From a virus: a stretch of DNA of 49,077 bases. The position numbers and the translations under genes are program-made. Each line of letters opens with the position of its first letter. Position 1 is the stretch's first letter. The stretch lies in IMG/VR virus record IMGVR_UViG_3300022073_000015. One strand, 5' to 3'. A model generated the notes under the pieces. That model saw only the letters and a program-made list of their open reading frames with translations. It searched no databases and was not told where the DNA came from. Below, piece after piece: positions 2,279-46,390 of this stretch.

Positions 2279-2293
2279 ATGGGGCTTTATTTT
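2269..2293. terminator. Bidirectional intrinsic terminator between convergent genes
   Basis: gcccc-aataaat-ggggc hairpin followed by tttatttt. Lies between the stop of 1943..2278 (+) and the stop of 2287..3333 (-). Confidence 0.6.
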
Positions 2294-3333
2294 GTCAACA
2301 TGCCCACAGTGAAATTAAATTTTTGCCAGTCTTCTATTCTGAGCCATTCCGTACAACCGTCAAAACCTGTCAACTCTGCTGACGGGAAAGTGTCGTGAAA
2401 CCATTTTTCCATTGAGCGAATAAACTCACCATCTTCGGATTCAACCTGTGCAATTATATTGAAGTAGAACGGGGTGGTACGTTTTAATTCGAGCAGTCTG
2501 CGAGTCGAATCGTTTGAAATACCCACTTTCACATAGTCGTGAGTTGTGGAACGCAAGAAATAAAGTGTGCCGGGTTTTGATGTATTGTAACCATACTTAG
2601 CACAATGAGGACATCCACGACCTTGCGTTACACTGCTGGTTTGGGTATCCCACAGATGACCTTCACTACATTGAAATGTTGATTTCTTCCTTACGTTACC
2701 ACCGTACTCCACTAATGTAATACCGCGCTTATCATCATCGAGACGTTGTTGTATGATTTCTGGTGTCAGGGGGAATCGTTCAGCACAATGAGGACATCCG
2801 CGACCTCGTATTACATTGCTGGTTTTCGCACTCCATTCATGACCTTCGCTACATTGGAATGTTGATTTATTATTAACTGTACTACCGTATTCCACCAAAA
2901 TAATACCTCTCCCATCATCGTCGAGACGTTGTTGTATGATTTCTGGTGTTAACGGTACTTGTCCCGCACAATGAGGACACCCGCAGCCTTGTAATACACT
3001 GCTGGTCTCCGCACTCCACTCATGACCTTCACTACATTGGAATGTTGACTTCTTATGAGTTCTACCACCATACTCCACTAATGTAATACCGCGCTCATCA
3101 TCGTTCAGACGTTGTCGTATGACTTCTGGTGTTAAAGGGATGTTTCCGGCACAATGAGGACACCCGCAGCCTTGTAGTACACTATGGGCTGCCGCATCCC
3201 ACTCATGACCTTCACTACATCGGAAGGTTGATTTTTCCCTAACCCCACCACCATACTCAACTAACGTAATATCACGCCCATCATCATTAAGACGTTGTTG
3301 TATGATTTTCGGTGTTAATTTTCTTCCGCCCAT
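2287..3333 (-). CDS. T5orf172 (GIY-YIG-related) domain protein with four tandem zinc-ribbon modules; homing-endonuclease-like
   Basis: 348 aa. Four 61-aa repeats each end in CSEGHEW...GCGCPHCAG. The C-terminus (GTLYFLRS..YVKVGIS...GCTEWL) resembles the T5orf172/MUG113 domain. Confidence 0.6.
   Translation of the reverse strand: MGGRKLTPKIIQQRLNDDGRDITLVEYGGGVREKSTFRCSEGHEWDAAAHSVLQGCGCPHCAGNIPLTPEVIRQRLNDDERGITLVEYGGRTHKKSTFQCSEGHEWSAETSSVLQGCGCPHCAGQVPLTPEIIQQRLDDDGRGIILVEYGSTVNNKSTFQCSEGHEWSAKTSNVIRGRGCPHCAERFPLTPEIIQQRLDDDKRGITLVEYGGNVRKKSTFQCSEGHLWDTQTSSVTQGRGCPHCAKYGYNTSKPGTLYFLRSTTHDYVKVGISNDSTRRLLELKRTTPFYFNIIAQVESEDGEFIRSMEKWFHDTFPSAELTGFDGCTEWLRIEDWQKFNFTVGMLTK
2587..3318. repeat. 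Four in-frame tandem copies of a 183-bp coding repeat
   Basis: The marker cacaatgaggaca recurs at 2601, 2784, 2967 and 3150, an exact 183-bp period. Confidence 0.85.
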
Positions 3334-17323: not shown

Positions 17324-17352
17324 ACTATACTCCCCATTGACGGACTCGTCAA
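17324..17352 (-). promoter_or_regulatory. Dyad-type promoter (site b): TTGACG-N17-TATAGT, dyad 17337-17352
   Basis: Minus-strand reading. Sits directly downstream of the terminator at 17362-17386. Confidence 0.65.
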
Positions 17353-18795: not shown

Positions 18796-20531
18796 TGACA
18801 CCTGTACTATCACCCGTTGCTGATGCGGTCAGTGATGCAACACGTCCAAAGTTACGACCGTATCAGCAGGAACTTAAAAATAATATTTACAACCACTGGA
18901 ATGACCACCCGCACAGTAATGCGCTGGCGGTGTTGCCGACTGGTGCAGGTAAGACAGTTTTCTTCTCGTCGGTGATTGCGGACGTCGCCGGGGCAACCTG
19001 TGCTGTTGCACACCGTCAGGAACTGGTCAGTCAGATTAGTCTTGCACTGGCGCGTAATAAAGTGCGTCACCGTATCATTGGTCCGACAAATGTTGTGAAG
19101 ATGATTGTCCGGCTGCACATGGAAGAAGTGGGTCACAGTTATTATGACCCGAACAGTCGTCATGCTGTCGCCGGTGTTGACACCCTTGTGCGTCGCGGCG
19201 ACCAGCTTGCTAACTGGCTACCTACTGTAAAATTATGGGTCATGGACGAAGCGCACCATGTGCTGCAAGATAATAAATGGGGCAAAGCAGTCAATATGTT
19301 CCGTAATGCGCGTGGGCTGGGTGTGACTGCCACGCCATCACGTGCGGACGGTTGCGGGCTGGGTTCACACGCTGACGGCGTGTTTGACAAAATGTTTGTC
19401 GGCCCATCCATGCGTGACCTGATTAATATGGGCTACCTGACCGATTATAAGCTTTATGCGCCGCCCAGTTCTTTCCGTCGTGACGCTATTAAAAAGGTCA
19501 GTCAGACGACTGGTGATTTCGTTGCATCAGAGGTAAGTAAAGCGGTCAATGAGTCCAGTCTTGTCGCACATGATGAAAAACAAATTGTGGGTGACGTGGT
19601 GCGCACATACCAGAAACTGCTTAACGGTATGCTGACGGTCGTATTTGCACCCGATGTGGCGACCGCCACAGAGCTGGAAAAGCAGTACAACGATGCGGAC
19701 ATCCCAGCAAAGTGTGTACACGGTGCAATGCCGGATGCTGAACGTATCAATGCCGTGCGTAAATTTAAAAACCGTGAATACCTCGTACTGACATCAGTGG
19801 CCATTTTCGATGAAGGCTTTGACTGCCCCGCGATTGAGGCGGTACAGGATGTATCAGCCACGGAATCTTTCGGACGGTTTGTGCAGCGTGCAGGACGCAT
19901 GTTGCGTCTGAAAGGCGGTAAGGATTTTGGGCGTTATGTTGACCACGTGGGCAATATTGAACGTCACGCTGTGATTGTTGACCACCCGGAAGGAACAAAA
20001 ATTGAACTGTGTCACCGGGAGTGGACACTTGACCGGCGTGAGAAGTCAGGTGGTAAAAGTGAGAAGTCAGCAGTACGTTCCTGTGTTGCCTGTACCAGCA
20101 CGTATGAACGTTACCTCAAAGCGTGCCCTTACTGTGGTGAACCAATACCGCAACCAGCAGCAGGACAGCGCAGCAATGTAGAATGGGTGGACGGGGATTT
20201 AAACGAGCTTGACCCCGCTGTACTGGCGCAGCTACAGGGTGAAGTTATTGGCGCACGTGAGGACGTCAATCAGTACCGAGATAAAATGATTGGTCACGGT
20301 TTACCACCTCACGCTGTGAAGAGAAACGTTAAATTACATGAAAACCGCCTTGACGCGCTCGTCAAACTTGACCTATCATTAGCCACATGGGCCGGGTATC
20401 GCCGTGCGGAAGGTCTGAGCGACAGTGAAATATTTCGCAAATTTTATCTTTCGTTTGGAATTAGTTGGATCGAGGCACAGGCGCTCAAAGCGGCTGATGC
20501 GGATAAATTAAGAGAGAGGATTGGGTTATAA
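18795..20531 (+). CDS. Superfamily 2 DEAD/DEAH-box helicase with a C-terminal zinc ribbon
   Basis: Walker A LPTGAGKT and motif II MDEAHH. CVAC...CPYCG. ATG at 18795. Confidence 0.8.
   Translation: MTPVLSPVADAVSDATRPKLRPYQQELKNNIYNHWNDHPHSNALAVLPTGAGKTVFFSSVIADVAGATCAVAHRQELVSQISLALARNKVRHRIIGPTNVVKMIVRLHMEEVGHSYYDPNSRHAVAGVDTLVRRGDQLANWLPTVKLWVMDEAHHVLQDNKWGKAVNMFRNARGLGVTATPSRADGCGLGSHADGVFDKMFVGPSMRDLINMGYLTDYKLYAPPSSFRRDAIKKVSQTTGDFVASEVSKAVNESSLVAHDEKQIVGDVVRTYQKLLNGMLTVVFAPDVATATELEKQYNDADIPAKCVHGAMPDAERINAVRKFKNREYLVLTSVAIFDEGFDCPAIEAVQDVSATESFGRFVQRAGRMLRLKGGKDFGRYVDHVGNIERHAVIVDHPEGTKIELCHREWTLDRREKSGGKSEKSAVRSCVACTSTYERYLKACPYCGEPIPQPAAGQRSNVEWVDGDLNELDPAVLAQLQGEVIGAREDVNQYRDKMIGHGLPPHAVKRNVKLHENRLDALVKLDLSLATWAGYRRAEGLSDSEIFRKFYLSFGISWIEAQALKAADADKLRERIGL
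20349..20378 (+). promoter_or_regulatory. Intragenic dyad-type promoter (site e): TTGACG-N18-TATCAT
   Basis: The 16-mer TTGACGcgctCGTCAA is identical to site a. Lies inside the helicase 3' end, about 150 nt upstream of the first methyltransferase gene. Confidence 0.4.
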
Positions 20532-21241
20532 TGGATATTAAAACAGAGAACACATGGTTAATGTTTGGTGATTGTCTGGAGCGCATGAAAGAAATACCGG
20601 ATGGTAGTGTAGATTTGATTTTGTGTGATTTACCGTATGGTACTACACGGAATAAGTGGGATAGTGTCATAGAACTGCCATCGATATGGGCCGAGTACAA
20701 GCGCATTTCCCGTGGCGCTATCGTGCTCACTGCGCAGTCACCATTCGACAAGGTTCTTGGCGCATCAAATATCGACATGCTTCGATATGAGTGGATCTGG
20801 CAAAAGACGAAAGCAACAGGCCACTTGAACGCAAAGGTTCAGCCGATGAAAAATCATGAAAATATCCTCGTTTTTTACAAGTCACTACCAGTGTACAACC
20901 CACAGGGACTGGTAAGGAAAGCAGTTCCAACCATCAGAAAGGGTAGAAGCAACGGTACGAACTACGGCAAATCAGACAAGGATGCGATTCAGGAATTTGA
21001 GAACTACCCGCGCTCAATCATTGCGATACCAAGCGAAGGCAAAACCGTTCACCCCACGCAAAAACCCGTAGAACTTATGGAATACTTAGTTAAAACTTAC
21101 ACTAATGAAGGTGACACGGTGCTCGACAATACTATGGGTAGCGGCACCACCGGTGTAGCGTGTAAGAACACAAATCGCAAATTCATCGGCATTGAAATGG
21201 ACCCAACTTATTACGGTATCGCATGTGGGAGAATTTTATGA
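20531..21241 (+). CDS. DNA methyltransferase (N6A/N4C, beta class), paralog 1
   Basis: CDLPYG (DPPY-type motif IV), HPTQKP, and TVLDNTMGSGTTGVA (motif I). Confidence 0.85.
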   Translation: MDIKTENTWLMFGDCLERMKEIPDGSVDLILCDLPYGTTRNKWDSVIELPSIWAEYKRISRGAIVLTAQSPFDKVLGASNIDMLRYEWIWQKTKATGHLNAKVQPMKNHENILVFYKSLPVYNPQGLVRKAVPTIRKGRSNGTNYGKSDKDAIQEFENYPRSIIAIPSEGKTVHPTQKPVELMEYLVKTYTNEGDTVLDNTMGSGTTGVACKNTNRKFIGIEMDPTYYGIACGRIL

Positions 21242-21714
21242 CAACCCCAACACTTCTCGAATGGCAACGTAAGCACGGTATCACGGCTGAGGCGCTGGCT
21301 GACCTTGTGGACATTGTGGGGCTGGATGTCCCACGCTCAACCAAAGATACACCCGAGGCGCGTGTACAGGATGAGGCGCGACTGCTGGCAAGTAAGATGG
21401 GCTGGCGACTTTTTCGCAATAATGTGGGTGTCCTGAAAGATGAGCGCGGTGTACCGGTACGTTACGGTATCTGCAACGACTCCCCGGCGATGAACAAACG
21501 TATCAAGTCGAGCGACCTCATCGGCATCCGCCCCGTGGTTATCACGCCCGATATGGTTGGGTCAACCATTGGTCAGTTTGTGGCGCGTGAGATTAAAAAA
21601 GCAGGGTGGAAGTACAAAGGGACGGAACACGAAGAGGCGCAGCTTGCATTTGGTACACTGGTTATCGGGCTGGGTGGTGATTTTAAATTCTGGAATGGTG
21701 AGGGAGATTTGTGA
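21238..21714 (+). CDS. VRR-NUC domain nuclease
   Basis: PD-(D/E)XK signature SSDLIG...AREIKK. ATGA overlaps on both sides. Confidence 0.6.
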   Translation: MTTPTLLEWQRKHGITAEALADLVDIVGLDVPRSTKDTPEARVQDEARLLASKMGWRLFRNNVGVLKDERGVPVRYGICNDSPAMNKRIKSSDLIGIRPVVITPDMVGSTIGQFVAREIKKAGWKYKGTEHEEAQLAFGTLVIGLGGDFKFWNGEGDL

Positions 21715-22370
21715 TGGATATTAAAACAGAGAATACGTGGCTAATGTTTGGCGATTGTCTGGAACGTATGAGGGAGATTCCAGACGGTGGTATTGATATG
21801 GTTTTGTGTGACATTCCTTATGGTGAAGTTTCTCAAAAAAGTTCGGGTTTGAGACTGCTTGACAGAGGGAATGCCGACACATGTAACATTGACCTGATTG
21901 AAATGACAAACGAACTGAACAGAGTTTGCAGTGGTTCTTTTTATATTTTCTGTGGAACTATGCAAATCAGCACGCTGGTAGAAAATTTTAAAAACATTGG
22001 TTTAACTACCCGCGTCGGGGTATGGGAAAAGACTAACCCCAGTCCAATGAATGGTACAAAACTTTGGGTAAGTGGACTTGAATTTTGTGTGTTTGCTCGA
22101 AAACCAAAATCCACTTTCAACGAACATTGTCAAAAGGCGTTATGGCAAGCACCATCCGGAAGAGCGAAAATACATCCCACAGAGAAACCTGTCAAACTAA
22201 TTGAGCGGTTGATTATTGCATCGAGTAACGAAGGCGACACTGTACTGGATAATACGATGGGCAGCGGTACTACCGGTGTTGCGTGTCGCAATACAAACCG
22301 CAAATTTATAGGTATTGAAATGGACCCCACATACTATGGTATTGCTTGTGGTCGCATACTGAGTAGTTGA
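21714..22370 (+). CDS. DNA methyltransferase (N6A/N4C, beta class), paralog 2
   Basis: CDIPYG and HPTEKP. Its C-terminal 45 aa differ from paralog 1 at a single residue. Confidence 0.85.
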   Translation: MDIKTENTWLMFGDCLERMREIPDGGIDMVLCDIPYGEVSQKSSGLRLLDRGNADTCNIDLIEMTNELNRVCSGSFYIFCGTMQISTLVENFKNIGLTTRVGVWEKTNPSPMNGTKLWVSGLEFCVFARKPKSTFNEHCQKALWQAPSGRAKIHPTEKPVKLIERLIIASSNEGDTVLDNTMGSGTTGVACRNTNRKFIGIEMDPTYYGIACGRILSS

Positions 22371-22395
22371 CCATCCCGTCAACGCGTGTCATACT
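22367..22395 (+). promoter_or_regulatory. Dyad-type promoter (site f): TTGACC-N17-CATACT, dyad TTGACCatccCGTCAA
   Basis: Overlaps the stop codon of methyltransferase 2. Points into the TetR-like gene. Confidence 0.5.
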
Positions 22396-22426
22396 GGCTG
22401 CAATACTAACAGATACGGACTTAATC

Positions 22427-22708
22427 ATGAGCAAAGATACTATTTTAGAAGTAGCTTACACAATGGCACAACGTGACGGTTTCGGTACTCTTACACGCGA
22501 CGGTGTTGCGGCGGAAGCTGGTGTAGCCATGGGTAGTATAAATCATCACTGGGTGGTCATGTCTGCATTGCGTGATGCCGTAATGCAACGGGCTGTAGAA
22601 GAAGAAAATCTTGAAATAATCGCACAAGGGATTGCATTGGGTGACAAAATCGCAAATGCGGCACCACGTGCGATTCGAGTCAAGGCCGTGAATGAGTATC
22701 TTTTGTAA
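22427..22708 (+). CDS. Truncated TetR-family-like HTH DNA-binding protein (93 aa)
   Basis: ILEVAYTMAQRDGFGTLTRDGVAAEAGVAMGSINHHW matches the TetR_N helix-turn-helix pattern. No room for a ligand-binding domain. Confidence 0.5.
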   Translation: MSKDTILEVAYTMAQRDGFGTLTRDGVAAEAGVAMGSINHHWVVMSALRDAVMQRAVEEENLEIIAQGIALGDKIANAAPRAIRVKAVNEYLL

Positions 22709-22723
22709 AGGATCGTCTTGACG

Positions 22724-23407
22724 ATGGCTGGAAAAGCTTTAACAACGGAGGAATTTGTCAGCAGGGCTACAAAAGTACATGATGGAAAATACCGATATGA
22801 CAAATCGGTGTATACAGTTGGTACGATTCAATTGATTATCACTTGTCCTGAACACGGGGATTTTAAACAAATCCCCAGTAGTCACTTACGGGGGTGGGGT
22901 TGTCAGCATTGCGGAGGAAAATTAAAAAGCAATACGAATCTATTCATCAAAAAGGCACGTGAAATTTATGACGATAAGTATTCTTATGAAAAAGTAAAAT
23001 ATGTTCGCAATAAAATAAAAGTCACAATTACTTGTGCCAAACATGGAGATTTTACACAGACTCCAAATCATCATCTCAGAGGTGTAGGTTGCCCGAGGTG
23101 TGCAAAACATGGTTTCAACCCCTCAAAAAATGGAACGCTTTACGCACTTCGTTCTACCTGCGGTCAGTATGTCAAGATAGGCATAACAAATAATTTCGAG
23201 CAACGTTTTCACGCTTTAAAGCGCGTAACACCATTTGACGTATCCGTCATTGAGCGTATAGAATGTGACGGACAAACCGCCTCACAGTTAGAGAAGATGT
23301 TTCACAGAGAGTTTGAATCGGCTGGTTTTATGGGATTTGATGGTGCAACCGAGTGGTTGCGATGGTCAGCAGAGATACAACACTGGTTAAGGTTATTAAA
23401 ATGTTAA
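22724..23407 (+). CDS. T5orf172-domain protein with two Zn-ribbon modules (homing-endonuclease-like)
   Basis: Two VH(D/-)GKY.Y...CP/CAxHG...GCxxCG modules. The C-terminus (GTLYALRS..YVKIGIT...GATEWL) is homologous to that of 2287..3333. Confidence 0.6.
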   Translation: MAGKALTTEEFVSRATKVHDGKYRYDKSVYTVGTIQLIITCPEHGDFKQIPSSHLRGWGCQHCGGKLKSNTNLFIKKAREIYDDKYSYEKVKYVRNKIKVTITCAKHGDFTQTPNHHLRGVGCPRCAKHGFNPSKNGTLYALRSTCGQYVKIGITNNFEQRFHALKRVTPFDVSVIERIECDGQTASQLEKMFHREFESAGFMGFDGATEWLRWSAEIQHWLRLLKC

Positions 23408-25656
23408 AACAATATATTCCTTATTCTTTGGTAAAAGTCGGAGATAAGACGGTGAAACGTCCTCACGGTTCCACTACCAATCCGAATGACTGGATGACAC
23501 GTGAGGAAGCAGCTGCGAAGGGTGGGGATGGTGTAGGCTTTGTGTTCACGAATGATGACCCATACTTCTTTATTGATATTGACCACTGTCTTGTTGATGG
23601 GCAATGGTCACCGCTAGCGATGGAACTGTGTCGGGCATTCGCCGGGTGCTATGTCGAGATTTCACAAAGTGGAACAGGTCTTCACATCATCGGTAGCTAC
23701 TCTTCCATACCGGAACACTCCTGCAAAAATATAGCGCTTGGTCTTGAACTCTATCACACTGAAAGATTTGTTGCTTTGACTGGCTCAAGTGCGCAAGGGT
23801 CATGGGAACACGATGCTACCGGGGCGCTAAATACAGTAATTGCGCGCTATTTTCCGAAAGAAGAATCCACGGTGTCAGTGAAATGGACAAACTCACCACA
23901 GGTGGGTAGTAACCCGATTGAGGATGATACGAAACTCATTGAAAAAGCGTGTGCGGCTAAGGAGGGGGTTTCGGTTGTTTTTGGCGGTAAGGCCACTTTC
24001 AAAGACCTATGGAATGGCGTGGTATCGGAAGACGACGACCGTTCATCGCTTGACTCATCTCTCGCCACCCGGCTTTTATGGTGGACAGGTGGGAACTGCG
24101 AAAGAACTAAATCGCTGATGCTACAGAGTGGTCTTAAAAGAGATAAGTGGTTCACCAATAAGTCGTATCTGGAGCGCACCATCCTCAACGCCGCCGGACT
24201 TCTTACAACCTATTACAGTGTCGGTGCACCGATTGAACTCGTGACCCCTGCTCAGGTTGTGGAATCTAATACACCAATTATCCGCAGTGGTTATCAGTTT
24301 ATTGGTGGATCTCAATTATTAGACCATTTCAAAGGCTGCGTGTATGTGGCAGACAGTCATCGCGTACTAACCCCAAATGGTCAAATGCTGAAATCGGAAC
24401 AATTCGATGTTATGTACGGTGGTTACGCCTTCGCGTTAGACGACAGTAACGAAAAAACAACAAAGTCTGCCTTTGAAGCCTTCACACGGAGTCAGTGCAT
24501 CATGTTCCCGAAGGTTGACCGCTCGACATTCCGTCCGGATTTACCGCAAGGTGCGATTATTGAAGAGGACGGATTACGCCACGTTAACGCATATGTACCG
24601 GTAACTGTAGCGAGCACGCCAGGTGATGTGACACCTTTCCTCACCCATCTGGCTAAACTGTTACCGGTGGAGCATGACCGTGCTATTTTACTGGCGTACA
24701 TGGCAGCATGTGTACAACACAAAGGCACTAAATTTAAATGGGCACCTCTTTTGCAGGGTGTTGAGGGTAATGGTAAAACATTATTCACACTGTGTGTTAT
24801 GGAAGCGGTCGGGTCGCGCTACAGCCACATGCCACCAGCGCAGGAAATTGGCGAAAAATTCAACGCATGGTTGTTCGATAAAATATTTATCGGCGTGGAA
24901 GATATCTACGTTCCTGAGCAAAAACTTGAAGTGATTGAAATACTCAAACCGATGATTACCGGTGAATACCTGGCTAAACGTGCAATGCAGCAGGACCAGG
25001 TGATGCACCGGCTGTGCGCTAACTTCATGTTCAACAGTAATCACAAGAACGCCGTGCGCAAGACCGCTAATGACCGACGTTTTGCCATTTTCTACACTGC
25101 ACAGCAGGAGCATGCTGATATTGTGCGCAGTGGGATGGACGGCGATTATTTCCCCAACCTGTACGAATGGCTCAAGCGTGGCGGCGGTTTTGCCGCAGTA
25201 ACTCACTATCTGGAGAATTACGCCATCCCTGACGCGCTCAACCCGGCAACACATTGCCAACGTGCACCGGAGACAAGCAGCACTCACGAGGCAGTTACTG
25301 CGTCACTGGGTGGTGTGGAGCAGGAGATTATGGAAGCGATTGATGAAGGTCGTCAGGGCTTTGCAGGTGGATGGGTGAGCAGTAAGGCACTGGACAACCT
25401 GTTGCGCTCAATGCGTGCGGAACGTCAGATACCACCGGGTAAACGCCGTGACCTCATGATGAGTCTGGGATACGACTGGCACCCGGCGCTCAAGGATGGA
25501 CGTGTGAACAATGTGATAATGATTGATGGCGGTAAGCCACGCCTTTACATCAAAGTGGGTCACATCCACGCCAACCTTGAACGTGCGGCGGATGTGGAGC
25601 GCTATTATGCAGCGGCGCAGGGTGATACAACCGCACTTGCAATGACAGCCCCGTGA
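23401..25656 (+). CDS. Bifunctional primase-polymerase (AEP) / D5-like SF3 helicase
   Basis: AEP motifs FFIDIDH and SQSGTGLH. Walker A GVEGNGKT. ATG at 23401. Confidence 0.85.
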   Translation: MLKQYIPYSLVKVGDKTVKRPHGSTTNPNDWMTREEAAAKGGDGVGFVFTNDDPYFFIDIDHCLVDGQWSPLAMELCRAFAGCYVEISQSGTGLHIIGSYSSIPEHSCKNIALGLELYHTERFVALTGSSAQGSWEHDATGALNTVIARYFPKEESTVSVKWTNSPQVGSNPIEDDTKLIEKACAAKEGVSVVFGGKATFKDLWNGVVSEDDDRSSLDSSLATRLLWWTGGNCERTKSLMLQSGLKRDKWFTNKSYLERTILNAAGLLTTYYSVGAPIELVTPAQVVESNTPIIRSGYQFIGGSQLLDHFKGCVYVADSHRVLTPNGQMLKSEQFDVMYGGYAFALDDSNEKTTKSAFEAFTRSQCIMFPKVDRSTFRPDLPQGAIIEEDGLRHVNAYVPVTVASTPGDVTPFLTHLAKLLPVEHDRAILLAYMAACVQHKGTKFKWAPLLQGVEGNGKTLFTLCVMEAVGSRYSHMPPAQEIGEKFNAWLFDKIFIGVEDIYVPEQKLEVIEILKPMITGEYLAKRAMQQDQVMHRLCANFMFNSNHKNAVRKTANDRRFAIFYTAQQEHADIVRSGMDGDYFPNLYEWLKRGGGFAAVTHYLENYAIPDALNPATHCQRAPETSSTHEAVTASLGGVEQEIMEAIDEGRQGFAGGWVSSKALDNLLRSMRAERQIPPGKRRDLMMSLGYDWHPALKDGRVNNVIMIDGGKPRLYIKVGHIHANLERAADVERYYAAAQGDTTALAMTAP

Positions 25657-25681: not shown

Positions 25682-25710
25682 TTGACGGACTCGTCAAGGT
25701 GAGATAGATT
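25682..25710 (+). promoter_or_regulatory. Dyad-type promoter (site g): TTGACG-N17-TAGATT
   Basis: Dyad TTGACGgactCGTCAA at 25682-25697. Points into 25743. Confidence 0.65.
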
Positions 25711-25742: not shown

Positions 25743-26129
25743 ATGAAAGCTGGTGATAAATTTACTTTCGAAGGTGTTGAATATTTTTTCTGTATGGAGT
25801 CAAAAAGAAACGGTGGTGGTACTCATTTCTTTGCACAACAAATGAATTGTGCAAACACCAAAATGCGTCAAATTGCGTATGCAGACCTGATTGTCGATAC
25901 CGCTGAGATTGAAAAATTGAACCCACGTTTTGTTGCTTTCACTGTTCTTACTGGCTGTGAGGAAAAAGGAATTGTGCGTAATTCCAAATTCATGTCATTC
26001 ATCGGCGAAATGCTCACCAAATATGCCAAATCGAAAGGCTACACTCATACACCACACTCACCCTTTCATATTCAAAATCACGATGATTTTACAAGTTTTA
26101 TCATCAGTCAACCAAAGTCGGGGCTTTAA
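25743..26129 (+). CDS. Hypothetical protein
   Basis: 128-aa ORF downstream of promoter g. Confidence 0.5.
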   Translation: MKAGDKFTFEGVEYFFCMESKRNGGGTHFFAQQMNCANTKMRQIAYADLIVDTAEIEKLNPRFVAFTVLTGCEEKGIVRNSKFMSFIGEMLTKYAKSKGYTHTPHSPFHIQNHDDFTSFIISQPKSGL

Positions 26130-26130
26130 C

Positions 26131-26304
26131 ATGAAAACTATTATCAGTCGTCACACCCTGTCAGAGATGACAGCAACCATGACAGAAGTACAGGCTTTGA
26201 CCACGCTGTCACGTATGCGTACTCAGGCTGACCGGGACGGACTTTGTGTCACCCGTGTCATTGTGGACGGTAAAGTACAGGAGCAGGTTGTATGGAAGCG
26301 TTAA
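26131..26304 (+). CDS. Small hypothetical protein (57 aa)
   Basis: ATG at 26131, two nt after the upstream stop. Confidence 0.4.
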   Translation: MKTIISRHTLSEMTATMTEVQALTTLSRMRTQADRDGLCVTRVIVDGKVQEQVVWKR

Positions 26305-26558
26305 GTTATTGTCAGTTGATGGAGCGGTGCATTGCGCTTGAGGCGGAGGTTGCGGAATTGAAAGGGCAACAAAAAATAATAATTATCGGAAATAGCGATT
26401 ATTGTTCAAAACACACAGGTGTAAGGCTAATGAAACACCCTTACAACATACTGGCATCTGAACCTCCAGAGACCGCGATGTATTGTCCAGAATGTGAGCC
26501 CAATGTTAAAGAATGGGCCGAACAACAAAGCAAAAGATGGATGAGTAAAGCCCCGTGA
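26292..26558 (+). CDS. Hypothetical protein (coiled coil plus a Cys pair)
   Basis: 88 aa. gagcagg RBS. Confidence 0.45.
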   Translation: MEALSYCQLMERCIALEAEVAELKGQQKIIIIGNSDYCSKHTGVRLMKHPYNILASEPPETAMYCPECEPNVKEWAEQQSKRWMSKAP

Positions 26559-26794: not shown

Positions 26795-27334
26795 CTACTC
26801 TCCGCACTGTTTACATTTACCGTTTGCCACGTAGCGTTCACCGATACCCCCGCAGTGCTTGCAACGTGTATCTGGTGTGTACCATTTGTCACCATCCCGC
26901 AACGCTTCCTGTCGTGTTTTGCCGCGTTTTGGTATCTCTTGTGGTACATCCACACCGAGTGCGACAGCGGTCTCCAGAAGCGCTCTATATTGCATTAAAA
27001 GCGCTAACTCTTCATCGAGGTTTGCAAGGCGCTGCTCGTTGATGTTAGTGCTGGTGACACTGATGGTGGGTTTGTCAGAGAGCGCGCAAAATACACACTT
27101 GCCGTTGGTCATTTGCACGCCGGGATGCCAGCACAGTTTGTTACGACTCTTAAGCACTCGCCACTTTTTACCGCTGCGTAAGAGCGACAAAACTTCGTCG
27201 ATGTGTTCATAACCGGTTGTTGTACCATCTTTCAAAGCTCTCACAAGGTCGTTATGACGATGAAGAGAGCACGCGGAACATTCTCCGCTAATTTTATTAA
27301 AAACTGTACTTTCGCATTTTGGACACTGATTCAT
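26795..27334 (-). CDS. Multi-zinc-finger protein (candidate DNA-binding or regulatory protein)
   Basis: 179 aa with CPKC..CSAC, a C..C pair, and CKHCGG...CKQCG. Confidence 0.45.
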   Translation of the reverse strand: MNQCPKCESTVFNKISGECSACSLHRHNDLVRALKDGTTTGYEHIDEVLSLLRSGKKWRVLKSRNKLCWHPGVQMTNGKCVFCALSDKPTISVTSTNINEQRLANLDEELALLMQYRALLETAVALGVDVPQEIPKRGKTRQEALRDGDKWYTPDTRCKHCGGIGERYVANGKCKQCGE

Positions 27335-27402
27335 GATAATCCTCCGGTTAGAATATATTTAAAGATATCATATAGCCGCAAAGTATACCAACGGTTTCCC
27401 GT

Positions 27403-27655
27403 TTACCCCAGTGGGGTATTTTGTAAGTTATTGAATCAGATGACGTTTAAAAGTTTTACCCAAAACCCCGGTGCCGCTTCACTCCGTACTAATATTTATT
27501 CTATTTTATATTATATAGATATACTTATAGTATATCTATATGCGTATAATTATAGTATTTACTTACTACTAATATAAGACTTTTAACGGGGTATTAGGGT
27601 AAAGTAGTAGTAATATATAAGTAATACAGTAACTTACAAAATACCCCGGTATACC
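27403..27655. repeat. Nested-dyad AT-rich element A
   Basis: Nested inverted repeats with a common dyad axis at about 27527-27530:
- Outer perfect 18-bp inverted repeat, 27413-27430 / 27630-27647.
- Inner inverted repeat, 27455-27470 / 27587-27603.
- Central AT palindrome, 27513-27541.
Homologous to element B. Confidence 0.8.
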
Positions 27656-27682
27656 TGAAAATGGTTTTTTATCGGGGTGTGG

Positions 27683-27743
27683 TGGGGTATTGGCTCATTG
27701 TGTGGAATTGGTGTTGCAACTGTGGTATTGTCTGTGGTATTGG
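27683..27743 (+). repeat. Four direct iteron-like repeats, TGTGG(T/A)ATTGG
   Basis: Copies start at 27683, 27701, 27721 and 27733, about 50-110 nt upstream of the terS start. Confidence 0.6.
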
Positions 27744-27793
27744 CGCGTAAACGGGAGACGTAACATGACTGGATTTGGTGAGGGTTAAACACA

Positions 27794-28237
27794 ATGGCAA
27801 GAGCGAAACTCAACGAGCATGGTGTGACTGAACAGCAGGAAAAGTTCTGTCAGGCATTCGTGGAGACCGGGAACGCTTCTGAGTCATATCGCCGTGCTTA
27901 CAAGATTGTGAAGATGGCACCAAACACCATTGCGGTGCGTGCATCTGAATTGTTGGATAAAGGTAACATACAGGTAAGACTCGAACAGTTACGGTCTGTG
28001 CATCGCAAACGACACAACGTTACAGTTGATTCACTGGTTGCCGAACTGGAAGAAATTAAGCGCATTGCACTGAGTGCCGAAACGCCTCAGTCGTCAGCTG
28101 CTGTGGCTGCGGTGATGGGTAAGGCGAAATTGGCCGGTCTGGGCAAACAACTTATCGAAATGTCGGGGAGTCTGTCCGTAACCCTGTCAAATTCGCAACG
28201 TGCGGCCCTTGACAAGGCTTTAGACGATGAGTACTAG
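27794..28237 (+). CDS. Terminase small subunit
   Basis: The N-terminus (TEQQEKFCQAFVETGNASESYRRAY...AVRASELL) fits the Terminase_2 pattern. Precedes the large subunit. Confidence 0.7.
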   Translation: MARAKLNEHGVTEQQEKFCQAFVETGNASESYRRAYKIVKMAPNTIAVRASELLDKGNIQVRLEQLRSVHRKRHNVTVDSLVAELEEIKRIALSAETPQSSAAVAAVMGKAKLAGLGKQLIEMSGSLSVTLSNSQRAALDKALDDEY

Positions 28238-32412: not shown

Positions 32413-32441
32413 ACTCTACACCACTATGACGAGGCCGTCAA
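32413..32441 (-). promoter_or_regulatory. Dyad-type promoter (site h): TTGACG-N17-TAGAGT, dyad 32426-32441
   Basis: Minus-strand reading. The dyad overlaps the 5' leader of the rightward Mu-F-like gene. Confidence 0.6.
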
Positions 32442-34738: not shown

Positions 34739-34755
34739 GTTGTCTCGATGGGGTA

Positions 34756-34785
34756 AGTCTACCCCACCTTTGACGGACTCGTCAA
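34756..34785 (-). promoter_or_regulatory. Dyad-type promoter (site i): TTGACG-N18-TAGACT, dyad 34770-34785
   Basis: Minus-strand reading. Confidence 0.6.
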
Positions 34786-41859: not shown

Positions 41860-41888
41860 ACTCTATACTCTCTTGACGCACTCGTCAA
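41860..41888 (-). promoter_or_regulatory. Dyad-type promoter (site k): TTGACG-N17-TAGAGT, dyad 41873-41888
   Basis: Minus-strand reading, 4 nt after the dUTPase stop. Confidence 0.6.
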
Positions 41889-42782: not shown

Positions 42783-42811
42783 AGTCTAACACCTCCTGAC
42801 GGACTCGTCAA
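42783..42811 (-). promoter_or_regulatory. Dyad-type promoter (site l): TTGACG-N17-TAGACT, dyad 42796-42811
   Basis: Minus-strand reading. Confidence 0.6.
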
Positions 42812-42820
42812 TGCCCTGCA

Positions 42821-43060
42821 CTGGGGTAAAATGTGTATCCACAAATCAATGACTTAGATTAGTTTACCCAAAACCCCGATGGTGCTTCACTCCGTACTAA
42901 TAAATATTCTACTTGTATGTATACAATATACATATACCTATATTCTTTTCTCCCTACAGTTAATTTTAACGGGGTATTTGGGTAAAGTAGTAGTATTACT
43001 ATATAAATTAATAACTTACAAAATACCCCGAATCAGGACAAAATCATTCATCGGGGTACA
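42821..43060. repeat. Nested-dyad AT-rich element B (homolog of element A)
   Basis: Inner inverted repeat at 42863-42878 / 42970-42986 and central palindrome at 42916-42934 share an axis at about 42925. The right outer arm (43012-43029) is identical to that of element A. The left outer arm is degenerate: GGGGTA is retained at 42823. Confidence 0.75.
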
Positions 43061-43097
43061 GTAGCGTCCGGCGACAGCTTGTGTGATAATCCTTGAC

Positions 43098-43565
43098 ATG
43101 AGCGTAAAAATTATTGACTTCCAACTGGCACAAGCCGAAATCAAACGTGAACTGGATAAGTTGCGCGGGAACAAATACGTCACTGTAGGTATCCACGAAG
43201 ATGCGGGTAACGTGGAGGACGGCTCGATGACGCAGGCACAGAACGGTGCGTTACAGAATTACGGCAACGATAAAATACCCGCTCGCCCGTGGCTCCTTCC
43301 CGGCGTACAGTCTGCCACTCAGGACATTGTGGATACCATTGCTTCCGGTATCGAGCACGGTTTACCTAATGACCAGATTATGGAACAGGTTGGTGCGTTT
43401 GCAGCAGGCGCAACTCAGCAGTACATCACTGACCTGAGAGACCCACCTAACGCACCGTACACCATCGAGAAAAAGGGTTCAGACAATCCTCTTATCGATA
43501 CAGGTTCAATGCGTGCGGCAGTAACATACAAAGTAACCGACCAGAAACCAGACGAGGGTATTTAA
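43098..43565 (+). CDS. Tail completion / HK97 gp10-like protein
   Basis: First gene of the tail block. The start is uncertain (GTG at 43083 or ATG at 43098). Confidence 0.35.
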   Translation: MSVKIIDFQLAQAEIKRELDKLRGNKYVTVGIHEDAGNVEDGSMTQAQNGALQNYGNDKIPARPWLLPGVQSATQDIVDTIASGIEHGLPNDQIMEQVGAFAAGATQQYITDLRDPPNAPYTIEKKGSDNPLIDTGSMRAAVTYKVTDQKPDEGI

Positions 43566-46360: not shown

Positions 46361-46390
46361 TTGACGCACTCGTCAACAATTGATTATAAT
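46361..46390 (+). promoter_or_regulatory. Dyad-type promoter (site m): TTGACG-N18-TATAAT
   Basis: Dyad TTGACGcactCGTCAA at 46361-46376. Points into the chaperone and tape-measure genes. Confidence 0.7.

Follow-up and report, generated by a model that had tools for sequence, protein, structure and literature searches.

Organization of the region upstream of terS

The window analyzed here is the whole stretch of 49,077 nt of the IMG/VR virus record IMGVR_UViG_3300022073_000015. Between a leftward Zn-ribbon gene and the terminase small subunit gene it contains a nested palindrome of about 235 bp (approximately positions 27403-27655), which we call Element A. The features of this region, together with the upstream primase-helicase gene, are the following:

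23353-25656, plus strand: primase-helicase gene, candidate initiator for the repeats (Pfam DUF5906 and NrS-1 HBD; matches in the PDB)
26795-27334, minus strand: gene for a Zn-ribbon/coiled-coil protein of 179 aa, read leftward off the element (phrog_20468, unknown function)
27382-27390, minus strand: candidate leftward extended -10 for the Zn-ribbon gene, TGGTATACT on the minus strand, found by sequence inspection
27404-27418, no strand: outer-left repeat pair TACCCC-AGT-GGGGTA, a small palindrome, kept as TACCCCGGTGGGGTA in close relatives
27413-27436, plus strand: outer-left arm of the long inverted repeat, GGGGTATTTTGTAAGTTATTGAAT, from the inverted-repeat search
27455-27470, minus strand: inner-left repeat pair, TTTACCCAAAACCCCG, pointing leftward from the core, kept from the window to KsaM-C1
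27487-27586, no strand: AT-rich core, candidate DNA unwinding element, stability minimum
27513-27541, no strand: central palindrome within the core, from the inverted-repeat search
27587-27603, plus strand: inner-right repeat pair, CGGGGTATTAGGGTAAA, pointing rightward from the core, kept in all relatives examined
27624-27647, minus strand: outer-right arm, ATACAGTAACTTACAAAATACCCC, holding TACCCC (27642-27647) and a conserved ACAGTAACTTACA block
27673-27689, plus strand: promoter-proximal repeats CGGGGTG (27673-27679) and GGGGTA (27684-27689)
27699-27747, plus strand: three TGTGG-(A/T)ATTG(G/T) units, a repeat family, candidate extended -10s for the terS operon
27794-28237, plus strand: terS, terminase small subunit, first gene of the rightward packaging operon (Pfam Terminase_2, phrog_51)

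Element A starts 1.7 kb past the stop codon of the primase-helicase gene, and the interval holds ORFs 25743-26558 and the Zn-ribbon gene. The nested symmetry described in the original prediction was borne out, since three inverted-repeat layers are present around a common axis at 27527-27530 (outer layer 27530, inner 27529, central 27527). The outer pair, 27413-27430 with 27630-27647, is a perfect 18-bp repeat which stretches to 24 nt at 92%, and the 18-mer occurs three times in the window at up to three mismatches, against 0.03 expected. The inner pair (27455-27472 and 27586-27603) presented a complementarity of 78%, while the central palindrome (27513-27525 and 27529-27541, with a loop of 3 nt) has perfect arms of 13 bp. 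The core is indeed AT-rich, with 85% A+T. The ungapped self-complementarity of the 250-bp segment, 0.44, is the highest found (genome mean 0.25, sd 0.04). The single-stranded fold of the segment has an energy of -33.9 kcal/mol compared with -20.1 +/- 3.3 for shuffled sequences (z = -4.2), with all three layers present in the centroid structure, and the hairpin of the central palindrome reaches -8.4 kcal/mol (z = -5.4).

The short motif GGGGTA/TACCCC, previously listed as recurring along the element, is exact at 27404, 27413, 27588, 27642 and 27684, whereas the copies given at 27465 and 27673 depart from it, being AACCCC (27464-27469) and the promoter-proximal CGGGGTG, respectively. GGGTA/TACCC copies are additionally present at 27457 and 27597, and the total for Element A is nine repeats, including variants. 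The inner ones, at 27457/27464 in reverse and 27588/27597 in forward orientation, bracket the core and point outward. In the terminator scan, the 27404-27418 palindrome and the T-run after it appeared as a weak terminator-like hairpin. The ACAGTAACTTACA block of the outer-right arm, whose conservation extends to Edwardsiella phage MSW-3, differs from the IHF consensus WATCARNNNNTTR at two positions, and its KsaM-C1 version is an exact match; we read it as a putative IHF-like site. Over the whole window no Rfam family reached the gathering score, the single match being to an sRNA, in the element and at chance level (E = 0.5), and the search for tRNA and tmRNA genes gave none.

A second copy of the module

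Element A is not unique in the window: its inner-left block, its inner-right block and the 18-mer recur at 42863-43030, inside a paralogous module:

42823-43090, no strand: Element B, located before the neck/tail operon (ATG at 43098), with seven repeats and a core at 42925-43024

Positions 42863-42911 are 90% identical to the inner-left block of Element A and 42970-42986 present one mismatch to its inner-right pair; the left arm of the long inverted repeat is absent from Element B. In both elements, two or more repeats lie on either side of the core, directed outward. In Element B, an extended -10 (TGTGATAAT, 43082-43090) precedes the neck gene, and the GGGGTA at 43053-43058 sits 26 nt upstream of GATAAT. 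This copy is located 17 kb from the primase-helicase gene. In its entry on Element A, the original prediction mentioned neither the second copy nor the link with the primase-helicase. A DnaA box matching at 8 of 9 positions (GTATCCACA, 42833-42841) was observed in Element B only, with no counterpart in Element A.

Duplex stability of the cores

Of all 100-bp duplex windows of the genome, the core of Element A is the least stable, at -96.7 kcal/mol where the mean is -139.8 and the sd 7.1, and that of Element B comes second, with z-scores of +6.1 and +4.5, respectively. The corresponding cores come out first in the same ranking in AAM22 (both elements), MSW-3, Scuro, B2 and the fetched part of Mulvp2, so that in six genomes the global minimum of stability falls at the centre of the module (for Mulvp2, in the part fetched). 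The centre of Element B of MSW-3 is C/T-rich and not AT-rich. GC skew along the window tracked gene orientation and gave no origin signal.

Conservation among related phages

The same architecture is found in Jedunavirus, Kosakonia, Pantoea and Edwardsiella phages, and also in Acinetobacter phage Scuro, Stenotrophomonas phage B2 and Enterobacter phage Mulvp2, in each of which one copy was found. Jedunavirus-like, Pantoea and Edwardsiella phages have two copies per genome, both at late-operon starts, and these hold the same two positions across several phage genera. The repeat consensus is WWCGGGGTAT (78 instances from 13 loci), and an AT core with at least two outward repeats per side holds in at least ten related elements. 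Among relatives, the core varies strongly in sequence and length yet is AT-rich throughout, while the repeats are invariant, which is what would be expected of an unwinding element flanked by binding sites. The loss of symmetry in related phages was to count against the original prediction, and on this point the answer is divided: symmetry of repeat orientation is kept, base-for-base symmetry is not.

In Scuro, B2 and Mulvp2 terS is unrelated, yet the element is again located just upstream of the packaging genes. By tblastn, no homologues of the Zn-ribbon (Zn-finger) gene or of terS were found in Scuro and B2, and the neck homologue was absent from Scuro and gave a weak match of 28% in B2. The primase-helicases of Scuro and B2 are 46-57% identical to that of the window; Mulvp2 keeps, with the element, the helicase and C-terminal parts (46% identical) and has a different N-terminal domain. 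Of the proteins of the window, those matched in two or more of the three are the primase-helicase, a DUF2800 exonuclease, an SNF2-like helicase, an endonuclease and a 348-aa protein of unknown function; no recognisable transcription factor was observed among the proteins common to these phages and the window.

Promoters and genes flanking the elements

A TG-extended -10 with no usable -35 lies before the late operon at Element A, at Element B and at all 29 related loci. In 28 of these 29 loci, a GGGGT(A/G) or GGGTA is found 24-26 nt from the extended -10, where the shuffled control gives about 0.06 matches per spacing, summed over the 29 loci. Since the outermost repeat keeps this position upstream of the extended -10, the module is apparently also wired to the late promoters. 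The proposal of an activator-dependent late-promoter region is therefore sustained in part, by a conserved distance before terS and before the neck operon in relatives, but no cognate phage activator could be recognised among the proteins common to the element-bearing phages.

In the window, the candidate extended -10 TGGTATTGT at 27723-27731 precedes terS. The segment 27699-27747, whose units are kept in close relatives and in KsaM-C1, also carries an invariant block, TGTGGTATTGGCGCG. The spacing at Element A of the window departs from the common one, given that TATTGT lies 36 nt from GGGGTA, that is, 10 nt (one helical turn) more than in the relative L006; the sole repeat at the common spacing is the variant CGGGGTG, which lies 26 nt from a poor hexamer, AATTGG. 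Elsewhere, the distance is 15 nt in Mulvp2 and 12-14 nt in B2. On the opposite side, the candidate -10 at 27382-27390 has, upstream on the minus strand, GGGGTA at 16 nt and TACCCC at 25 nt. A generic sigma-70 -35/-10 scan gave promoter-like matches that were not above those of shuffled sequences. Another leftward promoter has its -10 overlapped by a GGGGTA-N4-TACCCC palindrome at 34750-34765.

The Zn-ribbon protein belongs to no Pfam family, has no sequence match in the PDB, and its AlphaFold model (pLDDT 82) gave no fold match. Its homologues flank Element A in relatives. It was considered as the protein that binds the repeats, and dropped: Scuro and B2 carry the element but yielded no Zn-ribbon homologue, so that this is probably not the repeat-binding protein.

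The primase-helicase as candidate initiator

The primase-helicase is composed of a primase-polymerase domain, a DUF5906 SF3 helicase and a conserved C-terminal domain; the NrS-1 HBD found by Pfam is the helical domain of the NrS-1 primase-polymerase, and the matches of the protein in the PDB were the NrS-1 primase and, through the primase domain, 7ola, which is PriRep5 of SaPI5. The C-terminal domain is near-invariant in all six GGGGTA-bearing phages. The C-terminal 168 aa of the protein were modelled at a pLDDT of 87 and include a beta-alpha-alpha-beta-beta segment. Foldseek with this model gave no significant PDB match (best E 0.46): winged-helix proteins appeared solely among the weak matches (E > 0.4), which included MexR, Cdt1, ORC, FOXN1 and TubR. 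A profile search of PDB sequences with the same domain returned nothing.

Agrobacterium phage Milano has a primase-helicase 34% identical to that of the window, with an altered helix-and-wing segment at the C-terminus from which five residues are deleted, and the least stable region of its genome is bracketed by a different repeat, AAGACTCAATGA. Any covariation between the repeat and the C-terminal domain is thus represented by a single contrasting case against the six GGGGTA phages. By analogy with known initiators, we infer that the primase-helicase may bind the repeats.

Comparison with known systems

The origins of SaPIs consist of 6-12 penta- or hexanucleotide iterons around an AT-rich centre, with at least two iterons per side in opposite directions; Rep binds these iterons with its C-terminal winged-helix domain (PMC9371898). 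Elements A and B, with nine and seven repeats, fit this published description, and the primase-helicase of the window has the same overall domain order as PriRep5. Some differences should be mentioned. The SaPI origin is single and immediately downstream of rep, while here there are two copies, at 1.7 and 17 kb from the gene, neither of which is immediately downstream of the candidate initiator; moreover, these are located between diverging promoters, at a precise spacing from extended -10s. The repeat sequence is unrelated, the host is Gram-negative, and the fold match of the C-terminal domain of the window protein to winged-helix domains is not significant.

The alpha protein of satellite phage P4 is primase, SF3 helicase and origin-binding protein in one, and binds octamer repeats (TGTTCACC) grouped in two separate clusters, ori and crr. 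This system was reportedly worked out by Flensburg and Calendar in 1987 and by Ziegelin et al. in 1993 and 1995. It resembles the present one in its multifunctional initiator (here a candidate), in the short repeats in both orientations and in the two clusters per genome; however, crr is an auxiliary site and not a second complete AT-core module as in our case, and we know of no link of P4 ori or crr to late promoters. The iteron/AT-core type of origin of SaPIs and P4 is matched by the window in the repeat arrays, in the AT centres and in the encoded primase and SF3 helicase.

Other phage origins combine promoters and melting regions. T4 oriF and oriG consist of a middle promoter and a downstream unwinding element, and the primary origin of T7 of promoters and an AT-rich region. 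The likeness is an easily melted segment adjoining promoters and, therefore, transcription and origin opening can be coupled. In T4 and T7, however, priming or activation of the origin is the work of the transcript, and arrays of initiator sites are lacking, whereas the module of the window is dominated by repeat arrays and no transcript through the core is evident.

From the transcriptional side, the promoters served by phi29 p4 (A2c/A2b/A3), Mu Mor/C and P2 Ogr, and those with class II CRP-type sites, also have an extended -10 without a good -35. The class II sites, at -41.5, resemble the putative protein site centred at about -41 in most relatives, and early/late switch regions likewise have their early and late promoters placed back to back, one protein binding at several sites. 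These systems have fewer sites than ours; here the centre is a global stability minimum, no cognate activator was found, and the distribution follows the replication module. Lastly, lambda cosB and P1 pac consist of repeated terminase sites and an IHF bend, adjoining the terminase genes. The position upstream of terS, the short sites flanking a centre and the possible IHF-like blocks are reminiscent of them, but here a second copy is located at the neck operon and the repeat is kept with an unrelated terS.

Possible functions of the element

Taking these observations together, our best explanation, to which we give about even chances, is that Element A is a replication origin with coupled divergent promoters, one of two copies of the module per genome. 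Among the three functions initially considered (origin, late-promoter region and cruciform), the origin is the best supported, by the architecture, the stability minima and the co-occurrence with the primase-helicase; the binding, melting and initiation steps we infer. The 7-9 copies of (C)GGGGTA would bracket a stretch of about 100 bp predicted to be the easiest DNA of the genome to melt. By analogy with SaPI Rep/PriRep and P4 alpha, the primase-helicase would bind them through its conserved C-terminal domain, open the AT core, load itself on both sides and prime DNA synthesis, so that replication would start within the core. The module would work between diverging promoters, leftward for the Zn-ribbon gene and rightward for terS-terL-portal, and the outermost repeat would take the place of the activator site or -35 of the extended -10 promoter. 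In this arrangement, the occupancy of the origin would probably be coupled to the expression of a late operon, the packaging operon at Element A and the tail operon at Element B. That the primase-helicase on the outermost repeat acts itself as a -35 substitute or class II-type activator of the packaging and tail promoters is a more doubtful proposal. There are also points against an origin. Most phage replicons have one origin, and here there are two copies per genome, both exactly at late-operon starts; furthermore, late-promoter control predicts the location by the packaging genes with an unrelated terS and the fixed spacing. The distance from the candidate initiator gene, the fold search with the C-terminal domain, the C/T-rich centre of Element B of MSW-3 and the GC skew also count against it.

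The main rival to the origin reading is a purely transcriptional early/late switch, comparable to the phi29 p4 region and the Mu Mor/C and P2 Ogr late promoters, which we regard as possible although tentative. A phage regulator other than the initiator would bind GGGGTA and activate the extended -10s of terS and neck from about -41.5, and the same regulator would control the opposing leftward promoters, the AT centre being mere spacer or bendable DNA. Both copies are indeed located in divergent intergenic regions immediately before late operons, the 24-26 nt spacing is maintained in 28 of 29 loci despite the unconserved intervening sequence, and where ORFs are inserted the promoter follows the element rather than terS. 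The palindrome at 34750-34765 overlaps a -10, which is a typical position for an operator, and Scuro, B2 and Mulvp2, with one element each, have according to their annotation a largely contiguous late block. However, no candidate regulator is common to all element-bearing phages: the Zn-ribbon protein escapes detection in Scuro and B2, and the common proteins are replication and recombination enzymes plus the 348-aa protein. A switch would account neither for the position of the centre as global minimum of stability in six genomes nor for the need of 7-9 sites with outward inner pairs; elsewhere in the window, the late gene blocks at 32426 and 36001 have no such element, and the spacing deviates in Element A of the window, Mulvp2 and B2.

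Far less probable is a pac site, in which TerS would bind the GGGGTA arrays, perhaps with an IHF bend, and the first headful cut would be made in or near the AT core. The location directly upstream of terS, the putative IHF-like blocks between the repeat groups and the many deposited or assembled genomes that begin within the core are consistent with it, although the repetition between A and B and the low complexity of the AT-rich core account for assembly breaks there. Likewise, Jedunavirus IME346 was reported to have no fixed termini, which fits headful packaging (PMC9007800). Yet the same module stands before the neck gene, 15 kb away, and the fixed distance to the -10 would have no packaging role. 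Also, terS-pac pairs normally co-vary, whereas Scuro and B2 have the repeat but no detectable homologue of terS; Element A is thus not a single site that co-varies with terS. The least probable alternative, to which we give very little credit, is a palindrome acting by its shape (cruciform or hairpin) or a MITE-like selfish insertion, with a role independent of the short repeats. The perfect 18-bp terminal inverted repeat, the size of about 235 bp with an AT-rich interior, the partial second copy and the marked folding of the single strand (z = -4.2) would speak for it. But the outer-left arm, present in L054 and L051, is lost in L053 and KsaM-C1, and the outer-arm matches drop from 22/24 in the window to 19, 21, 8 and 7 in relatives. 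In the closest relatives, the central perfect arms are 6-7 bp, compared with 13 bp in the window, and substitutions in one arm are uncompensated in the other. A cruciform role of Element A, as initially suggested, is therefore unlikely on comparative grounds, because both the long perfect arms and the palindrome at the centre are specific to the lineage. The terminal inverted repeat is also confined to the window lineage, and Element B has no left arm. The MITE-like insertion was rejected: the copies occupy the same two positions in several genera and, for this reason, the module is not mobile.

Implications for Jedunavirus and related phages

Jedunavirus and its relatives are common phages of Klebsiella, Enterobacter and Pantoea, and therapy work makes use of them. 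In the literature searched, including works on Jedunavirus, JD001, KpV52/79, AAM22 and KsaM-C1, we found no description of these repeats or of the origin, promoter set or regulatory circuit, and no replication, binding or transcript data for these phages. The present analysis provides two precise origin candidates, a candidate initiator domain with its expected repeat, and two promoters which probably drive most of the structural genes. If, as in the more doubtful proposal, the primase-helicase itself acts as the late-gene switch, assembly of the origin complex would directly license late transcription, with two origin modules, one per late transcription unit, which would be a replication-coupled late switch unlike the sliding-clamp mechanism of T4. 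If the initiator controls both promoters, this would be a simple new tie between replication and late gene expression. In addition, the module accounts for the two fixed points at which assemblies of these phages tend to break, and it indicates which sequences are best left intact in genome engineering.

Architecture of Element A and of its second copy

The ~49 kb of the window are the genome of a Jedunavirus-like myophage, with Klebsiella phages as its nearest records (~80% nucleotide identity across parts of the region) and Kosakonia phage vB_KsaM-C1 and Pantoea phage AAM22 as more distant relatives. Element A, a module of nested repeats at about 27403-27689, is located in the following setting:

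26795-27334, leftward, gene of a Zn-ribbon/coiled-coil protein (179 aa), left of Element A
27335-27793, divergent intergenic region with Element A (459 bp)
27794-28237, rightward, small terminase gene (terS), right of Element A, followed by terL and the portal gene

Just before terS, ATGACTGGATTTGGTGAGGGTTAA (27765-27788) retains 7 codons of a small ORF, which five relatives' sequences have at full length between promoter and terS (L006, L012, L014, L051 and L054); its GAGGG is the terS ribosome-binding site.

The original prediction described three inverted-repeat layers on one dyad axis, an AT-rich core and recurring GGGGTA motifs, and all of these were confirmed. The outer pair (27413-27430 / 27630-27647) consists of an 18-mer repeated without mismatch and can be extended to 24 nt at 92%; the inner pair (27455-27472 / 27586-27603) shows 78% complementarity, and the central pair (27513-27525 / 27529-27541) has perfect 13-bp arms. 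Their axes fall at 27530, 27529 and 27527, and 27487-27586 is 85% A+T. The repeat, (C)GGGGTA or TACCCC in reverse, occurs nine times including close variants, four to the left and five to the right of the core. The 18-mer has three matches in the window against 0.03 expected, far beyond chance; the ungapped self-complementarity of the segment (0.44 vs 0.25 +/- 0.04) is the highest sampled in the genome, and its folding as single-stranded DNA gives z = -4.2.

The inner-left block, the inner-right block and the 18-mer were found again at 42863-43030, within Element B (about 42823-43090). This second module also occupies a divergent intergenic region, with the neck/tail-completion gene downstream (ATG at 43098), and carries seven repeats in the order of Element A, without the long left arm. 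It also contains a perfect IHF-consensus match (AATCAATGACTTA, 42844-42856) and a DnaA-box-like GTATCCACA (8/9 match, 42833-42841).

For low duplex stability, the cores of Elements A and B rank first and second among the 100-bp windows of the 49 kb (z +6.1 and +4.5). Equivalent cores rank first in AAM22, Edwardsiella phage MSW-3, Acinetobacter phage Scuro and Stenotrophomonas phage B2, and that of Enterobacter phage Mulvp2 does so within the fetched 34.5 kb. Element B of MSW-3 has a C/T-rich centre. GC skew was uninformative as an origin signal in the window. Several GenBank records and IMG/VR contigs start or end inside the AT core of A or B (L004/L005, the KpV79 record ends, and L007, L010, L015, L028, L029 and L040); these are likely assembly breaks at the repeat or AT-rich core, and may instead be physical ends.

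Conservation in related phages

A shared layout stands upstream of both terS and the neck gene in Klebsiella, Kosakonia and Pantoea phages, uncultivated viral contigs and MSW-3. Read toward the late gene, it comprises 1-3 outer repeats and a left-pointing inner pair; a pyrimidine-rich stretch, the AT-rich centre and a right-pointing inner pair; a purine-rich stretch that includes a conserved ACAGTAACTTACA-like block; and, finally, 1-2 reversed repeats, a last forward repeat and the promoter. The repeat consensus is WWCGGGGTAT (n = 78 instances).

In the closest relatives, whose Zn-ribbon protein is 77-86% identical, neither the repeats nor the bases directly beside them vary, and the core differs in sequence and length. 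The perfect arms of the central palindrome shrink from 13 bp to only 6-7 bp, and the matches between the 24-nt outer arms drop from 22/24 in the window to 19, 21, 8 and 7, with no compensating changes in the outer arms among the relatives compared. Thus, the symmetry expected in relatives is kept as repeat architecture, not as an exact palindrome. Since the arms are lost uncompensated and the repeats are invariant, selection probably acts on separate protein sites and AT-richness rather than on base pairing between arms; the proposed cruciform-forming site is contradicted by this decay. Further to the right, the block TGTGGTATTGGCGCG (27733-27747) is invariant from the window to KsaM-C1; its hexamer TATTGG lacks the final T usual in a -10.

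Association with the primase-helicase

The product of ORF 23353-25656 (+) combines an NrS-1-like primase-polymerase domain, which matches PriRep5 of SaPI5 (PDB 7ola), a DUF5906 SF3 helicase and a conserved C-terminal domain. In Scuro and B2 no Zn-ribbon or terS homologue was detectable, and the neck protein is matched weakly (28%) in B2 and not at all in Scuro; both phages have a primase-helicase 46-57% identical to that of the window and a GGGGTA/AT-core element at their stability minimum. In Mulvp2 the N-terminal domain differs, the helicase and C-terminal domain are the same, and the element is kept. Homologues in two or more of these three phages were found for the following proteins of the window: a DUF2800 exonuclease, an SNF2-like helicase, an endonuclease, a 348-aa protein of unassigned function and the primase-helicase. 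By this comparison, the element travels with the primase-helicase rather than with its neighbour genes.

A C-terminal segment, P..KRR..M..LGYDWHP.LKDGRVNN, is nearly invariant in the six GGGGTA phages. In Agrobacterium phage Milano (primase-helicase 34% identical) it is altered, with a 5-residue deletion, and the stability minimum is flanked by another repeat, AAGACTCAATGA; this contrast, in one case only, goes the expected way. The Milano minimum (L050 40500-40800, record about 56900-57200), the 100 bp of lowest stability in the fetched 42 kb, is flanked by AAGACTCAATGA copies in both orientations, of which one inverted pair carries a terminator annotation; the region is a candidate origin whose repeats differ from GGGGTA. 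The C-terminal domain was modelled confidently (pLDDT 87); a structure search with it gave no significant match, winged-helix proteins appearing only among the weak ones.

An HNH/T5orf172-type endonuclease ORF (22718-23407) lies between a TetR gene and the primase-helicase, overlapping the listed GTG start of the latter, and two N6/N4 DNA methyltransferase genes (20531-21241, 21711-22370) are just upstream. Elsewhere, a leftward ORF (2287-3333, 348 aa) contains a 183-bp tandem repeat (2599-3318, 3.9 copies, 79% identity), so its protein would have repeated 61-residue units.

Probable coupling to late promoters

A TG-extended -10 (e.g. TGGTAAAAT, TGGTATCAT, TGGTATTAT, TGTGATAAT and TGTTATAAT) lies 24-26 nt beyond the last forward repeat in 28 of 29 loci, and the stretch between them lacks sequence conservation; shuffled sequences gave ~0.06 matches per spacing in total over the 29 loci. 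At this spacing the repeat covers about -44 to -38, where class II activator sites lie. The promoter remains with the element where extra small ORFs intervene before terS. Element B fits the rule (GGGGTA 26 nt before GATAAT). Element A departs from it somewhat: a 10-nt insertion common to its closest relatives lengthens the distance between GGGGTA and TATTGT by one helical turn, to 36 nt; at 26 nt it has only the variant CGGGGTG before a poor hexamer. On the leftward side, the TGGTATACT element, a candidate extended -10 of the Zn-ribbon gene, is 16 nt from a repeat, and the distances are 15 nt in Mulvp2 and 12-14 nt in B2. The element is always at the start of the packaging operon, even with unrelated terS, and in two-copy genomes the second is at the start of the neck/tail operon; nothing else argues as strongly for a transcriptional role as this position.

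Apart from Elements A and B, the repeat recurs in a regulatory-looking setting only at the palindrome GGGGTAAGTCTACCCC (34750-34765), which overlaps, in an operator-like position, the -10 (TAGACT) of a leftward TTGACG-type promoter at 34771-34784. The window has 14 exact copies of the palindrome TGACG-N4-CGTCA, and 19 when one mismatch is allowed, against 2.2 expected; exact sites include:

17338-17351
25683-25696
34771-34784
41874-41887
42797-42810
46362-46375

Usually TTGACG..CGTCAA, followed 17 nt on by TAGAGT, TAGACT or TATAGT, these sites look like a sigma-70-type promoter family with a palindromic -35 region. AAM22 has ten copies and MSW-3 has two, whereas Scuro, B2, Mulvp2 and Milano have none. 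The TetR-family gene (22367-22708) is a candidate for encoding their binder.

Function of the module

The replication origin, one of the options first put forward, is backed by the architecture, the stability minima and the co-occurrence with the primase-helicase. A pure origin accounts for these minima, the many outward-pointing sites and the absence of a shared regulator, but leaves the two copies at late operon starts and the promoter spacing unexplained. The late-promoter region, also proposed originally, holds in part: it accounts for position and repeat/-10 spacing, but not for the minima, for the number of outward-pointing sites or for the finding that no regulator is shared, and we regard a purely transcriptional switch as possible though rather unlikely. 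A pac site is very improbable, given the second copy and a repeat conserved across unrelated terS genes. Least probable of all is a structural palindrome or mobile element: uncompensated arm loss argues that the functional form is not a cruciform or hairpin, and selection on protein sites and AT-richness, not arm pairing, speaks against a mobile element. The literature searched contained no experiments on replication or transcription of these phages.

A combined reading covers all observations, and we favour, at about even chances, an origin with coupled promoters. The primase-helicase would bind the repeats, the core would melt and replication would initiate there, and the outermost repeats would double as promoter elements with a regulatory effect.

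Two repeat clusters for one primase-helicase are known from ori and crr of P4, which the window may resemble in this respect; T4 and T7 origins are likewise beside promoters, and class II activator-dependent late promoters and the phi29 p4 switch have similar promoter syntax. SaPI origins have 6-12 penta- or hexanucleotide iterons around an AT-rich centre, at least two on each side and in opposite directions; a self-loading Rep helicase binds them through its C-terminal winged-helix domain and melts the centre without needing ATP (PMC9371898). The layout of Elements A and B equals that description, and SaPI origins may be the nearest likeness in the working of the module. The architecture is thus that of the SaPI/P4 type, but the element is not immediately downstream of rep: the SaPI origin adjoins its initiator gene and that of the window does not. 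The module would be of a known kind, an iteron-flanked unwinding element for a self-loading primase-helicase, from which it would vary in its duplication and its fusion at a fixed distance to late promoters in a lytic enterobacterial myophage group.
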